Assembly: GCA_964447495.1 (NCBI GenBank)
Contig: CAYUTF010000010.1
Span: forward strand, 46,474-62,101
Reading direction: 5' to 3'
DNA: 15,628 nt
Origin: an uncultured archaeon
GTDB taxonomy: Archaea > Asgardarchaeota > Lokiarchaeia > Sigyniarchaeales > SOKP01
Shown here: positions 2 through 15,505 of the stretch, in pieces
Numbering within the stretch: position 1 is the stretch's first letter
Layout: every line of letters starts with the position of its first letter
Program-made: the position numbers and the translations under genes
Notes under the pieces: model-generated
Databases searched by the model: none
Told to the model about the DNA's origin: nothing
The model's input: the letters and a program-made list of their open reading frames with translations, nothing else

Positions 2-511
2 ACTCCATATATTTACTTTATAATAGGGTTTACTCCACTTCCAATAGCAGCTTATATTTGGAGCATCGCTTTCAAAAAATTAGTTTATCAAGAAAAGAGG
101 AAAATTTTTACTACTATTTTTATTGTTATGGGTGTTATTGTAGAAATAATTTTCATTATTTTGCTTGTGATTGATCCAGGATTAATTGGTTAAGTAATAA
201 GTCCTATTGATGCAGATTACAATCTTTTGATTACAATTTATCAATTTTTTCTTGTAATATACATGTTAATTACAGGAATTCTGTTTGGTAGGGCATCTCT
301 AAGAGATGATAACCCAGAAATTCGATTAAAGGGTAAGTTACTGATAATTGCATTTGTTTCTTTCGTCATAGGCGCAGTTTTAGAAATATTAAGCGGAATT
401 TCAATAGTAATAATGATAATCGCTAGACTAATTTTAATATCTAGTTCGATTGAATTTTATGGCGGATTCATGCTCCCTGAGTGGATGAAAAAGCTTTTTT
501 TAAAAAAATGA
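2..511 (+). pseudogene. Multi-pass membrane protein (5' end outside window) interrupted by an in-frame TAA at 191-193; pseudogene or sequencing error
   Basis: Frame 2 is open from base 2 (TPYIYFIIGFTPLPIAAYIWSIAFKKLVYQEKRKIFTTIFIVMGVIVEIIFIILLVIDPGLIG*), then continues after TAA (VISPIDADYNLLITIYQFFLV...) into the listed 227..511 ORF. Hydrophobic helices lie on both sides of the stop. Confidence 0.75.
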
Positions 512-12026: not shown

Positions 12027-13349
12027 TTGTTTTATATCATAGATTTAAAATCATTAGAAATTCTCTTAAAGGGTTTATCCGATTTCATTGATGGGAAATC
12101 AAGACTATTGAAAGAAAAGCATAGGAAAAATGCCACTGTTTTTCATTATTATCAAGAAATTGTGAGAAATTGGAATAAATTAAATTTTATTATAAATAAA
12201 ACTACGAGATCTCTGAAAACTAAAGTTGATTTAGACTCTCATTTAAAAGCTCATCTCTATTATTCTACATATCGTATATTCCAGGAAAAAGTCCCAATTA
12301 GAATCATAATCCAAGAGTTAAAGCCATCAGATAAGTTGTTAGAACTCTTAAAGAAGTTAACCTCCTTTTCATGGTCTCGTGCTTTAGAAGGTAAATCATT
12401 TAATGAAAGTTTAAGCTTGGAAGAAGCCATACCTACTTTTTTTATAGAACGATTAACACCAGTATTTTCAAAAGAATTTTTGATTGAGACTATCAAATCT
12501 ATGAACTATACACCTACCAGTTTGGACGTATCTTTTCGAATTAATGATCTACGGTTTAAAAATGATAGAAATACTACTTGTAAATTTATTATAGATGATT
12601 TAAGAAAAGAAGGAATTAAATCTCATCAAGATAAAGAGGTACCTTTCATTTATTATACAAAAAATGAGTTTAAAAGCAAATTATTATCAAGTGAGTGGTA
12701 TAAAAAAGGATATATTATATTACATGATAAAGCCTCATTTCTAATCTCTCAATTACTACTTCCCAAATCAAATGAATTAATTTGTGATATGTGTGCAGCT
12801 CCTGGAATTAAAACAAGTATTATTGCGCAACTCTCAAATAATGAATCCAAACTAATAGCTTGTGAGTTTAATTTTAAAAGATTAATGCAATTGAAAAAGT
12901 TATTAAAAAAATTGGCAGTCTCAAATTCATTTTTATTAAATGTCGATAGTACAATTATTAACAATTACTTCCATAATTCATTTGACAAAATCTTAATTGA
13001 TGCTCCTTGCACAGGGAGTGGAACTTTCTTGAATCATCCCGAATTAAAATGGCGTCAGAATTATGAATTTCTTAATCAAAATTTATTATTACAAAGTAAG
13101 ATGATTGAATCAAGTTTAAAGTTATTAAAACCAGGTGGTATTTTGGTCTACGTAACGTGTAGTCTCTACCCCGAGGAAGGAGAAAATCAAATCAAAAATA
13201 TTTTAGATTATGTAGATCCTTTAGATTTACCGCATTATTTTTCTCCTAGTTATAAGATTGATGGGGAACCTTTAAAGGGAACAGGTAGACTATTTCCTTC
13301 CATTCACAACACCCAAGGTTTTTTTGTAAGTAAGTTAAAAAAGAAATAA
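12027..13349 (+). CDS. RsmB/NOP2/NSUN family RNA cytosine-C5 methyltransferase
   Basis: SAM motif DMCAAPGIKT, motif IV ILIDAPCTGSG, motif VI LVYVTCS, EEGE and C-terminal GFFVSKL, plus a helical N-terminal extension. Exact start uncertain (TTG 12027). Confidence 0.92.
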   Translation: MFYIIDLKSLEILLKGLSDFIDGKSRLLKEKHRKNATVFHYYQEIVRNWNKLNFIINKTTRSLKTKVDLDSHLKAHLYYSTYRIFQEKVPIRIIIQELKPSDKLLELLKKLTSFSWSRALEGKSFNESLSLEEAIPTFFIERLTPVFSKEFLIETIKSMNYTPTSLDVSFRINDLRFKNDRNTTCKFIIDDLRKEGIKSHQDKEVPFIYYTKNEFKSKLLSSEWYKKGYIILHDKASFLISQLLLPKSNELICDMCAAPGIKTSIIAQLSNNESKLIACEFNFKRLMQLKKLLKKLAVSNSFLLNVDSTIINNYFHNSFDKILIDAPCTGSGTFLNHPELKWRQNYEFLNQNLLLQSKMIESSLKLLKPGGILVYVTCSLYPEEGENQIKNILDYVDPLDLPHYFSPSYKIDGEPLKGTGRLFPSIHNTQGFFVSKLKKK

Positions 13350-13395
13350 AAACTAATTAAGACTTTAATTGTTAATAATATTGAATCTGAATATT

Positions 13396-14208
13396 ATGGA
13401 TAATAATAAAATTAAATTATGGACTGTTGGCCAAATCGATGCAACCGGTTTGCGTGGTCCTCATGAAGTTGAGCTCCAAAATATTAGTAATAATAAGTAC
13501 CCTTTATTTATTGACATTGACCTAAATACATTGGAAAAGATCGTTGTAGATAATTTAGGAGGAAAGGTAGACAATATTGGGGTAAATGAGGATTGGACAA
13601 TAACTATAGAGATGTTTCCTGAAGTAAAAATTCATTTTGCCTATTCGTATTTCGGCGATGAGTTTGGGGATGAGATTGAGGCAGAAATTAAATTCTATTT
13701 CTCAGGTGAACGCGTATATTGGGTTCCCGGGGAGGATATTGCAACATACATCGATATCGTAATGGATTTTATAGAGCGTCTTTTAAAAAGCAAAGAACCT
13801 TTTGAAAAATCCTATAATCAGAAAACAGAGCTAATGGAAAAAATACTCATTCAACGTTCTGGACCATTCAAATATTTGAAAGAAAACGATAAAGAAAAGT
13901 TAGCAGAATTCATTGGAGCGAAAGTGTGGAAAACTTCTGATGGATGGAGAATTAAAAAAGAGTTCTTTCCTCAAATGTTTGCTGAAATTATATGGAGTAA
14001 AGATAATGATTTAGATATAGAGTTTTCAGGTGAAAATCTTGAAGTTATGAGTAGTTATCATGCTGAATTGATTGGGATTTTTATAATTAACCATATCTTA
14101 CGCTATATTACAATTCATAATGAAGAAAAACCCCTTCCTGACATCTGTCAGATAATGTTTTCAAGAATGTTTACAAAGCAAAAGGGTTGGGAGCATAGAA
14201 CAAGATAA
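13396..14208 (+). CDS. Hypothetical protein with two internal repeats (DUF3786-like, tentative)
   Basis: ATG 13396 is in frame with the listed ORF (TTG 13369). Duplicated pattern G.KV....W.I..E.FP.....FSGE. The segment MFPEVKIHFAYSYFGDEF..EAEIKFYF recalls DUF3786. Confidence 0.7.
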   Translation: MDNNKIKLWTVGQIDATGLRGPHEVELQNISNNKYPLFIDIDLNTLEKIVVDNLGGKVDNIGVNEDWTITIEMFPEVKIHFAYSYFGDEFGDEIEAEIKFYFSGERVYWVPGEDIATYIDIVMDFIERLLKSKEPFEKSYNQKTELMEKILIQRSGPFKYLKENDKEKLAEFIGAKVWKTSDGWRIKKEFFPQMFAEIIWSKDNDLDIEFSGENLEVMSSYHAELIGIFIINHILRYITIHNEEKPLPDICQIMFSRMFTKQKGWEHRTR

Positions 14209-14283: not shown

Positions 14284-14844
14284 CTAACAAGTTGTCCAGA
14301 ATACAGCTCTTCCTTTTTTTCTAGTTCTTTGGATTTTATGTGCGTTTTCTAAATCCGACATGATTTTCCAAATTTCCGCATTACTTAGTTTAAAGTATTT
14401 CCTTAACTCAGGAGTAGACATTTCCGTACCGTTTAATAGATTTTCAACTAATCTTTTTACTTCTTCCATGGTATCCTCATCAGAATTGTCAACAATATCA
14501 TTTCCCTCATTTTCGTCATCTGATTCCATTTCAAACATAATTCTAGAAGCAACTTTATTTAATTGCTTGAGATTATTTTCAATTCCTTGAGGTTTCATAA
14601 AAAGACAGCAGAGTTCTAAATCTTTTGGAAACGCTACGATGTAAAATTTGTCATATAAGATTGCTCTTGGTTTTTTCCCTGCATTTCCTCCTCGAAACGC
14701 TAAATAAAAATTCATCGCGAAATCATCTAAATTCATCATATCATCCGATTTCTCATATTCTCGCTTCCACTTTAAAAACGGGCCATCTATCATATCAAAA
14801 CCGATTAGAGCGGCCCCAAATAGTTCCTTTTCATTAAAATTCAT
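14284..14844 (-). CDS. Putative longin/uDENN-like domain + acidic linker + C-terminal winged helix-turn-helix protein
   Basis: N-terminal hairpin GAALIGFDMIDGPFLKW (FDxxxGP), linker ESDDENEGNDIVDNSDED, and a C-terminal wHTH pattern (MSTPELRKYFKLSNAEIWKIMSDLENAHKIQRTRKKGRAVFW). The CDS is solid; domain calls are by pattern. Confidence 0.68.
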   Translation of the reverse strand: MNFNEKELFGAALIGFDMIDGPFLKWKREYEKSDDMMNLDDFAMNFYLAFRGGNAGKKPRAILYDKFYIVAFPKDLELCCLFMKPQGIENNLKQLNKVASRIMFEMESDDENEGNDIVDNSDEDTMEEVKRLVENLLNGTEMSTPELRKYFKLSNAEIWKIMSDLENAHKIQRTRKKGRAVFWTTC

Positions 14845-14845
14845 T

Positions 14846-15370
14846 TTATCGCATACCTCTTTTTATTGCTACTTGCTCTAATTCTTTTCTAATAATATTT
14901 ATAAGATTTATACGTTCCGCTGGATTAATTGCGGTGAGCCCATATGTCTGTACTTTAAGAATCTCCCTTACTCTTTCAGGATCCATACGTCCATCCGTTC
15001 TTTGTAAATCCTGCTTGTTTGCTATAGCGATTATTGGACACTCTTTTTCAACAAAGTGAGTTGCGTAATTAATTAACTCTCTTGATCTTAAAACGTTTCG
15101 TGGAGTGGAATCCGTAACTACTATAACAATATCAGATCCTAAGAGATGGTCCTTGCTATAAGCCTTTAAATAACTGCTTTGACCTGCTAGATCCCAAATC
15201 TTAAGTGTAAAACTTTCAATTTTTACAGTTTTCAAGTCAAATCCATGAGTAGGTAAATATATACGATCTATAGTATTTTTTGAGAGTAGTTTGAGCATGC
15301 TTGTCTTTCCAACAGCAGGATGGCCAATAAAACTGATTTTCACTAATTTATTTAATTCAGTACTCAACAT
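14846..15370 (-). CDS. Ras-superfamily small GTPase (Arf/Rab-like)
   Basis: G1 GHPAVGKTS, G2 YLPTHG, G3 WDLAGQ, G4 NKQD, G5-like TA; 174 aa. Confidence 0.93.
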   Translation of the reverse strand: MLSTELNKLVKISFIGHPAVGKTSMLKLLSKNTIDRIYLPTHGFDLKTVKIESFTLKIWDLAGQSSYLKAYSKDHLLGSDIVIVVTDSTPRNVLRSRELINYATHFVEKECPIIAIANKQDLQRTDGRMDPERVREILKVQTYGLTAINPAERINLINIIRKELEQVAIKRGMR

Positions 15371-15505
15371 GCAAAATTCAATTGAAAAGAATTTATTAAC
15401 ACAAAAGGAGCCATTTGTTTATATGAATCTGCATGATATCCGTATAATATTAGGGTAATACATTATCTTCTTTTTTTATTGATTCATTAGTAACATCAAT
15501 ATATC

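Follow-up and report, generated by a model that had tools for sequence, protein, structure and literature searches.

A conserved pair of genes for an Arf-like GTPase and a predicted longin-winged-helix protein in Loki-type Asgard archaea

The gene pair and its products

As listed in Table 1, a gene for an Arf-like small GTPase and a gene for a 186-amino-acid (aa) protein, hereafter called the partner, lie side by side in a 15,628-nucleotide (nt) stretch of DNA from an uncultured Lokiarchaeia archaeon of the order Sigyniarchaeales (GenBank assembly GCA_964447495.1, contig CAYUTF010000010.1, positions 46,474 to 62,101). The whole stretch is called the window in this study; it reaches the end of the contig. 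The genome is 3.8 Mb in size, is 98% complete, and has a GC content of approximately 31%. The junction of the two genes reads ...cga TAA a ATG aat..., in which a single nucleotide (14845) separates the stop codon of the GTPase gene from the ATG of the partner gene. This arrangement had been described in an original prediction made from the sequence alone, and the list of open reading frames (ORFs) and the sequence agree with it.

The GTPase has a complete set of G1-G5 motifs, as was originally predicted. In an alignment of 25 orthologues, the motifs G1 (G16-x4-G21-K22-T23), G2 (T41), G3 (W59-D60-x-x-G63-Q64), G4 (N118-K119-Q120-D121), and G5 (T146-A147) were located, with the catalytic Gln residue (Gln64) kept. 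The sequences GxPAVGKT in G1, T41, WDxxGQ, NKQD, and TA(I) are unchanged or almost unchanged among these orthologues. The Pfam Arf family (PF00025) matches the protein with 67 bits (cut-off 22.3; E = 1.8e-18), Roc and Ras rank next, and the closest solved relatives are Arl3 and Arl2 (57 bits). The orthologues carry source names such as 'ADP-ribosylation factor-like protein', 'Rab family GTPase', and 'small GTP-binding protein'. Since Leu stands at position 2 in place of Gly and the C-terminal end (...KRGMR) has no Cys, both lipidation motifs are absent, which is also in line with the original prediction. An N-terminal amphipathic helix was not found in the GTPase, in which only about 9 residues precede strand b1 and G1 (G16). 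Such a helix was reported for only 19 of 210 Asgard Arfs (Zhu et al., PMC11914678).

The partner was modelled with AlphaFold in two ways: at full length (26-row alignment, mean predicted local distance difference test score (pLDDT) of 75.8) and as residues 1-112 (29 rows, pLDDT 83.5, predicted template modelling score (pTM) 0.69). Both models have strands b1 (8-17) and b2 (21-29), helix a1 (39-51), strands b3 (61-63), b4 (68-74), and b5 (77-83), and helix a2 (89-111), which runs past the platform domain into the linker region. The order is thus beta-beta-alpha-beta-beta-beta-alpha, with only 7 residues ahead of b1. The longin order is defined as b-b-a-b-b-b-a(-a) with no helix before b1 (PMC10933270). 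In structural alignments, longin chains match the model from their own residues 1-6, and roadblock chains from their residues 10-25. Since no helix precedes b1, a helix follows b5, and longins align from their first residues, the element order of the models favours longin over roadblock within the roadblock/longin superfamily, to which the N-terminal domain is predicted to belong.

The solved structures matching the platform domain are almost solely GTPase platforms, with one PAS entry among the 50 rows listed. The Z-scores range from 5.6 to 8.8: TRAPP small subunits (8.8), COPI zeta (8.5), LAMTOR and dynein LC7 (8.3), MglB (7.7-8.0), NPRL chains of GATOR1 (7.2-7.5), and C9orf72-SMCR8 (6.3). 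AP sigma/mu, MON1-CCZ1, BLOC-3, DENND1A, and solved Asgard roadblocks also match. These values are middling and tied (within 1 Z), and they therefore fix the superfamily only and not the choice between longin and roadblock. A Foldseek search with the platform domain alone returned no E-value of 1e-3 or better, Pfam and NCBIfam had no match on residues 1-110, and a sequence-profile search of the PDB matched only the C-terminal domain. The whole partner falls into no Pfam or NCBIfam family and has only sub-threshold helix-turn-helix (HTH) matches. Of the predicted longin/uDENN fold, the AlphaFold models support the roadblock/longin superfamily and the longin order and do not single out uDENN. 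Lack of a longin fold had been set beforehand as a refuting condition, and the models do not refute the original prediction on this point.

The FDxxxGP hairpin pointed out in the original prediction is present as F16-D17-x3-G21-P22. Across 29 family rows, which include remote longin-only relatives, D17, G21, P22, and P59 are the sole invariant columns, and Y47, F50, and G53 are nearly invariant. In the model, G21-P22 lies between b1 and b2 at the end of their hairpin. A 'GP motif' that closes the b1-b2 loop is described as restricted to the GTPase-activating protein (GAP) longins FLCN, NPRL2, SMCR8, and C9orf72 and to some Asgard longins (PMC12290439). A Gly-rich basic loop after a1 (G52-G53...K57-K58-P59-R60) is also conserved. 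No Arg is invariant in the 29 rows, so there is no invariant Arg finger among them: position 60 is R in 16 rows, K in 5, M in 4, L in 3, and Q in 1, and 17 rows have another residue in place of R51 (K in 3, a non-basic one in 14).

The remainder of the partner consists of an acidic linker and a winged helix-turn-helix (wHTH) domain with a basic wing, both of which had been predicted from the sequence. In the full-length model, pLDDT falls below 50 only at residues 110-121. Over 80 orthologues, the net charge of the linker has a median of -8 over about 17 residues (range -13 to -3), and that of the wHTH has a median of +6. The wHTH is modelled as helices 122-137 and 144-151, a recognition helix (155-167), and a beta-hairpin wing (171-185) containing RTRKKGR. 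Its best structural match is the Pyrococcus ArsR homologue PH1932 (Z 10.9; root-mean-square deviation (rmsd) 2.6 A over 63 aligned residues), followed by NolR bound to DNA (Z 10.7), MarR (10.0-10.1), and HlyU and Z-alpha (about 10). The PDB profile matches of this domain are Lrs14, AdcR, and the Lrp-type PH0140 (E from 1e-3 to 5e-3). Four divergent orthologues pass Pfam cut-offs for DNA-binding HTH families (HTH_DeoR, HTH_11, HTH_5, and HTH_24). They are P0133 (HTH_11, 32.6 bits against a cut-off of 25; HTH_5, 32 against 22), P0129 and P0131 (HTH_DeoR, 31.7 and 29.9 bits against 21), and L091 (HTH_5, 23.7 bits against 22). Thus, judging from the sequences of these orthologues, the domain can be assigned to the prokaryotic DNA-binding class and is more than a generic winged helix.

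Some lineages have a different C-terminus. In P0145 and L088 (2956-3351, minus strand), a stretch of 9-12 Arg/Lys residues stands in place of the wHTH, and a GTPase gene lies directly upstream in L088. P0141, P0142, L086 (2983-3552, minus strand), and L087 (1343-1933, minus strand) have another C-terminal domain, and a GTPase gene adjoins in L086 and L087. This domain has a GLGPKR-type motif, which I take to be helix-hairpin-helix (HhH)-like; the Pfam matches IMS_HHH (E 0.07) and PolX (E 0.52) are both not significant, and the idea serves as a lead only. The swapped C-termini of these lineages fit a polyanion-binding job for the C-terminus of the partner.

Conservation of the pair

Is the gene pair common in Asgard archaea? 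A search of 5.8 billion proteins gave 490 homologues of the partner at E <=1e-3, with 28 representatives at 50% clustering. All named members come from Asgard archaea, and by sequence the partner can be regarded as a narrow family. Both proteins have hundreds of conserved homologues. Among 80 related loci from species-representative genomes, 79 have the GTPase gene directly upstream of the partner gene; the single exception has just 51 nt of upstream sequence. The arrangement is thus more than a product of chance. Overlap of the two reading frames was found in 75 of the 78 loci in which both were called. The overlap is 4 nt (ATGA type) in 40 loci, 11 nt in 28, 1 nt in 4, and 14 nt in 3.

A further 14 distant loci were compared. 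A GTPase gene of the same family, directly upstream and overlapping, is kept in 8 of them, where all other neighbours differ. The other 6 have only a 112-150-aa longin protein with no GTPase gene nearby. The DUF2070 membrane-protein gene, a gene for a 241-aa multi-pass membrane protein, the 279-aa gene, and the RsmB gene, all described below, are missing from all 14. Thus, the link between the GTPase and the partner outlives general synteny, and the links to the DUF2070, 241-aa, and 279-aa genes do not. Conserved adjacency had been set beforehand as a check on the original prediction, and these close and distant loci confirm it.

In a sample of the phylum, 115 of 301 genomes have a match to the partner family: 83 of 91 in the family of the window, all 10 in the rest of the order, and all 5 in the rest of the class. 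Outside the class, matches occur in 7 families only (16 of 19 genomes), and 17 families have none (among them 0/71, 0/27, 0/19, and 0/14 genomes). In summary, the family is near-universal in the class of the window, patchy elsewhere in the phylum, and limited to Asgard archaea in the searches made.

Both genes are single orthologues in the genome. The genome holds 48 GTPase-like matches to the GTPase family profile, of which the GTPase of the window scores 313 bits and the runner-up 112; the next-best match of the partner has an E-value of 0.03. No paralogous second longin for the partner was found in this 98% complete genome, and the partner may form a homodimer. The pairwise identities of the two proteins correlate with r = 0.72 over 74 loci, a value to which shared ancestry contributes. 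L092 (3562-4140, minus strand) and L095 (31-1002, minus strand) have a second, more distant GTPase-like ORF near the pair (profile E 2.5e-13 and 2.7e-11).

Partners with 72-75% identity carry source names from Thor-, Odin-, Hermod-, Hod-, and Lokiarchaeota. These names were not used as evidence of a spread across the phylum, as scores of this height stay within one family in the sample based on genome taxonomy. One locus, L011, is labelled as a Nanopelagicaceae bacterium and is probably a mis-binned contig.

The upstream region, the predicted complex, and the neighbouring genes

The regions upstream of the GTPase gene were compared in 76 loci. They share a block, ATAaTAt-nta-GATATTATc-n-AGATTcATaT, followed by CtTTTTTt..TTAA.(T)AAAT, and the first part of this block is a 7-4-7 inverted repeat. 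With up to 2 mismatches allowed, the palindrome is present in 51 of the 76 regions at a median distance of 82 nt ahead of the start codon. In mononucleotide shuffles, it was found in a mean of 5.1 loci (maximum 13), and other 200-nt windows of the same loci had it in 54 of 2667 cases. The palindrome is a candidate operator. Between it and the GTPase gene lie two candidate promoter boxes, of which TTAATAAAT sits 29 nt before the ATG of the GTPase gene. ATTCATAT occurs in 42 of the 76 loci, and the alignment consensus supports the boxes. Either of the two may serve as the TATA box.

The complex of the GTPase, GTP, Mg, and the partner was predicted with each protein given as an alignment made in this study. 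The three runs gave an interaction prediction score from aligned errors (ipSAE) of 0.33, 0.55, and 0.45 (median 0.45), in comparison with 0.00-0.01 for the controls. The pLDDT of the partner was at least 71, and the runs shared at least 14% of the contacts. In the calibration, 58 of 80 solved complexes and 2 of 110 mismatched pairs passed the mark; the passes with an ipSAE of 0.60 or lower comprised only 7 of the 80 solved complexes and both of these mismatched pairs. Since solved complexes of longin or roadblock proteins with GTPases exist, the pass could partly reflect memory. Modelling of the pair had been named as a check of whether the longin domain touches the switch regions or supplies an Arg. 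Binding as such receives weak support from the median score (0.45 against 0.01 for the best control), which is not taken as decisive; no interface was returned, and no Arg is invariant in the family.

The gene order on the minus strand is DUF2070, GTPase, and partner, and these genes converge with the 279-aa gene and a gene for an RsmB/NOP2-type methyltransferase. The peptide of the truncated DUF2070 gene is 95% identical to residues 599-638 of a protein at locus L004, which itself belongs to Pfam DUF2070 (8.6e-87). A second DUF2070 copy was not found elsewhere in the genome, and the rest of the gene is therefore probably unassembled. Of the 65 loci with more than 2.5 kb of upstream sequence, 54 have DUF2070 there in the same orientation. 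The 241-aa multi-pass membrane protein is encoded between DUF2070 and the GTPase in 35 of the 65 loci with room for it (37 of all 80). A homologue of this protein (46% identity over 162 aa) was found at positions 2-511 of the window (plus strand), 14 kb from the pair. It is split into two ORFs of the same frame (2..193 and 227..511) by an intervening stop codon, which may point to a pseudogene, a fault in the assembly, or a different start.

The 279-aa gene is near the pair in 75 of the 80 loci and is a conserved neighbour only within the family of the window. Its product has an Atlas score of 0.87 to a cluster in which 45% of the members have DUF3786. Homologues align from residue 18, and the listed TTG therefore probably lies upstream of the true start. 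Liu et al. (bioRxiv 10.1101/2020.10.19.343400) describe an operon of LAMTOR1-like, Rab-like, and DENN genes. The 279-aa protein was considered as the DENN protein of such an operon and was rejected, as it is distantly DUF3786-like and not DENN-like.

Contigs of DNA libraries from several runs span the entire stretch. From RNA, one contig of 181 nt from a salt-marsh metatranscriptome library (run X18) was found to be 100% identical to 14641-14821 inside the partner gene, which marks its presence in an RNA library and is no proof of transcription. No RNA contig spans the GTPase and partner genes, and outside 14641-14821 no part of the stretch is covered by RNA.

Table 1. Positions and strands of the features discussed, with the basis of each call.
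Feature	Position	Strand	Basis
RsmB/NOP2-type methyltransferase gene	12027-13349	+	Pfam 5.6e-48
Convergent downstream gene, 279 aa, distantly DUF3786-like	13369..14208	+	Pfam DUF3786 E 0.0023, under cut-off
Partner gene, 186 aa	14284..14844	-	ORF list
Partner residues 125-186 and stop codon, wHTH	14284..14472	-	Fold match, profile matches, charge
Partner residues 106-124, end of a2 and acidic disordered linker MESDDENEGNDIVDNSDED	14473..14529	-	pLDDT, charge
Partner residues 1-105, predicted platform domain of longin order	14530..14844	-	AlphaFold models, structural matches, invariant columns
Arf-like small GTPase gene, 174 aa	14846..15370	-	ORF list, Pfam Arf, orthologue alignment
Promoter-region boxes, candidate TATA box or B recognition element	15391..15430	-	AGATTCATAT at 15421-15430; TTAATAAAT at 15391-15399
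Palindromic element ATATTAT-ACGG-ATATCAT (ATATTATACGGATATCAT), candidate operator	15433..15450	-	2 mismatches to ATAATAT-N4-ATATTAT
DUF2070 membrane-protein gene, last 40 codons, truncated by contig end	15509..15628	-	Upstream, same-strand neighbour

A proposed GTPase switch with a possible output to DNA

It is proposed, with a probability of about one half, that the two proteins are a cognate GTPase/longin-wHTH pair of Loki-type Asgard archaea, in which the platform docks on the GTPase, the wHTH binds DNA, and the state of the GTPase is coupled to transcription. One promoter would drive both genes, and translational coupling would allow the Arf-like GTPase and the partner to be made together. 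The longin platform may dock on the GTPase as platforms do in MglB, Ragulator, TRAPP, NPRL2, and FLCN, and the winged helix would act as a DNA-binding domain of the bacterial and archaeal type. From this docking and a DNA-binding-type wHTH, a coupling of the nucleotide state to DNA binding would follow. The most likely target would be the operon's own upstream 7-4-7 palindrome, to which a dimer formed through the longin domains would bind. Speculatively, the acidic linker may cover the basic wHTH and release it when the GTPase engages. The narrower idea that the GTP/GDP state decides whether such a dimer occupies the operator is a tentative one, and I regard it as rather unlikely to hold in that exact form.

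In favour of this proposal are the conserved adjacency and overlap, the single copies of both genes, the correlated identities of the two proteins, the two modelled folds, the orthologues that pass the Pfam cut-offs for DNA-binding HTH families, the poly-Arg tails of other lineages, and the conserved palindrome. Several observations count against it. The wHTH of the window itself stays below the Pfam cut-off (HTH_11, 12.1 bits against 25), and protein-binding winged helices match it as well (cullin WHB, Z 9.2; ESCRT-II, 8.8; the Rpa2 winged helix, 9.9). The L088 lineage has the GTPase pair with no wHTH, and the pairing therefore does not require DNA binding. The median ipSAE of 0.45 lies in a band (0.60 or lower) in which passes are rated as wrong in most cases, except where the pair was already a likely guess. 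As for the palindrome, the pattern was read from the same, related loci in which it was counted, and its AT-rich sequence stands in a genome low in GC. A count within the window by itself lacks significance, with 4 matches where 1.24 were expected and at least as many in 11 of 200 shuffles. Variants of the recognition helix (SNSQ against [ST]N[AS]E) and of the half-site (ATATTA against ATATCA) seem to change together in some loci, but there are exceptions in both directions, and this comparison was not used as evidence. A fused GTPase-longin-wHTH protein was not found among proteins of 327-2000 aa, which is weak evidence.

The partner might instead be a minimal regulator of the NPRL2/FLCN type. 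The GP longin would then be a GAP or a guanine nucleotide exchange factor (GEF) for the adjacent GTPase, and the wHTH, like those of Npr2/Npr3, ESCRT-II, or cullins, would serve for dimerisation or as a scaffold with no DNA output. The invariant G21-P22 (29/29 rows) at the position seen in GAP longins (PMC12290439) and the conserved Gly-rich basic loop G52-R60 after a1 agree with this, as does the closeness of protein-binding to DNA-binding winged helices in the scores. NPRL chains match the platform domain (Z 7.2-7.5), and the GATOR1 chains 9o5d_C/D and 9o5a_H match the whole partner model in Foldseek over 194-197 columns, albeit at an rmsd of 15.6-16.7 A. The joining of a longin domain to wHTH domains in Npr2/Npr3, a parallel that the original prediction had drawn, is found in print (PMC3521125). 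However, no Arg is invariant in the partner (position 60 is R or K in 21/29 rows, and R51 varies), and there is no second longin paralogue with which to build a heterodimer like those of all three eukaryotic GAP complexes. The eukaryotic proteins have three wHTH domains, not one, and the wHTH of the orthologues matches prokaryotic DNA-binding families by sequence. A regulator of this type is a possibility of rather low probability; it and an output to DNA are not mutually exclusive. The original prediction, which is partly supported, had left both outcomes of a two-gene switch side by side. The adjacency, the fold, and the wHTH speak for such a switch, and the comparative evidence leans to the output to DNA over the NPRL2-like regulator.

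It is improbable that the partner is an ordinary one-component transcription factor, with a PAS-like or roadblock-like domain as the sensor of a small molecule and a neighbouring GTPase that is merely co-expressed and makes no direct contact. A sensor domain joined to a wHTH is the commonest design of prokaryotic regulators, remote longin-only relatives lack a GTPase in 6 of the 14 distant loci, and some partner homologues have been named automatically as 'biotin operon repressor' or 'Mor family transcriptional regulator'. The longin/roadblock fold is also PAS-like (PMC3521125). On the other side, the adjacency with overlapping frames persists where all other neighbours have changed, the structural neighbours are overwhelmingly GTPase platforms (1 PAS entry in the 50 rows listed), and the complex prediction gave 0.33-0.55 for the real pair against 0.00-0.01 for the controls. 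Very improbable, in turn, is a membrane module analogous to SR-beta/SRX or Rag/Ragulator, in which the pair acts on DUF2070, with or without the 241-aa protein, and the basic C-terminus attaches to acidic lipids instead of DNA. In SR-alpha, the SRX domain resembles a longin, and SR-beta resembles an Arf. The frequent linkage with DUF2070 (54/65 loci and the window) and the 241-aa protein (35/65), and the poly-Arg tails that replace the wHTH in one lineage, would suit such a module. However, DUF2070, the 241-aa and 279-aa genes, and RsmB are gone from the 14 distant loci, and the DUF2070 linkage thus looks like family-level synteny. Further, the Pfam SRPRB match (18.9 bits) is under the cut-off of 25, the GTPase has no membrane anchor or hydrophobic N-terminus, and the wHTH belongs to DNA-binding families.

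How does the proposed GTPase/longin-wHTH pair compare with known systems? MglA and MglB are a Ras-like GTPase and a roadblock-domain GAP, which are encoded in operons of bacteria and archaea. The present locus resembles them in that a GTPase gene adjoins a gene for a platform of the roadblock/longin superfamily (MglB, Z 7.7-8.0 with 78-81 residues aligned), and the platform would be expected to dock on the switch regions. It differs in that the partner opens with b1 in the longin order, whereas MglB has 20-24 extra N-terminal residues in the alignments. The partner also has the D-x3-GP hairpin and the wHTH, and the GTPase is Arf-like with a canonical DxxGQ and not MglA-like. C9orf72-SMCR8 acts on an Arf-family GTPase. 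With NPRL2/NPRL3, FLCN, and SMCR8/C9orf72, the partner shares an N-terminal longin domain with a GP motif before b2 (PMC12290439). Unlike them, it has one wHTH instead of three and has no DENN or TINI modules, no paralogous partner, and no invariant Arg finger. Its wHTH is of prokaryotic DNA-binding families, and no similarity to the eukaryotic GAP longins is detectable at the sequence level. The C-terminal wHTH, the Pfam membership of the orthologues, and the candidate palindromic operator at its own promoter are reminiscent of regulators of the ArsR, DeoR, MarR, and Lrs14 types. In contrast to these, the partner has a GTPase-platform fold at the sensor position, and the conserved candidate 'ligand' would be the co-encoded GTPase.

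Asgard genomes hold dozens of small GTPases and dozens of roadblock/longin proteins. The Asgard core includes 3 roadblock/longin and 2 small-GTPase families, in addition to NPRL2-like longin clusters of orthologous genes (asCOGs) (Liu et al., bioRxiv 10.1101/2020.10.19.343400). The partner resembles the Asgard longins with a GP motif, for which a common origin with the eukaryotic GAP longins, and perhaps a GAP activity like theirs, has been proposed (PMC12290439). Section 2.6 of the same paper gives the GTPase partners of these Asgard longins as unknown. In the text consulted, the accounts of Asgard GP-motif longins (PMC12290439; Liu et al.), whose supplements may list the family, do not mention the operon, the wHTH fusion, or the palindrome. 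A literature search found no account of this operon or of an archaeal longin-wHTH protein, and supplementary family tables may contain both families. Thus, the components and the principle of a GTPase plus a platform are already known. The conserved operon, the fusion to a single wHTH of the DNA-binding type, the acidic linker, and the upstream palindrome are undescribed as far as the literature search reaches.

In MK-D1, GTPase genes are generally not in operons with roadblock/longin genes, so gene order cannot match the partners to each other (PMC10933270). The present locus supplies one specific, single-copy, conserved, and presumably translationally coupled GTPase-longin pair, which lends itself to expression, to direct assays of binding and GAP/GEF activity, and to structural work. 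If the wHTH binds the palindrome, a switch of the Ras superfamily would be wired directly to transcription, of which no characterised example was found in the literature search, and the longin plus wHTH architecture of the GATOR1 subunits would gain a concrete prokaryotic context. If, further, the GTPase gates the operator, the longin and winged helix of NPRL2/NPRL3 would descend from, or parallel, an archaeal DNA-binding sensor of GTPase state. The pair would then be an archaeal forerunner of the control of eukaryotic transcription by Rag GTPases and longin GAPs.

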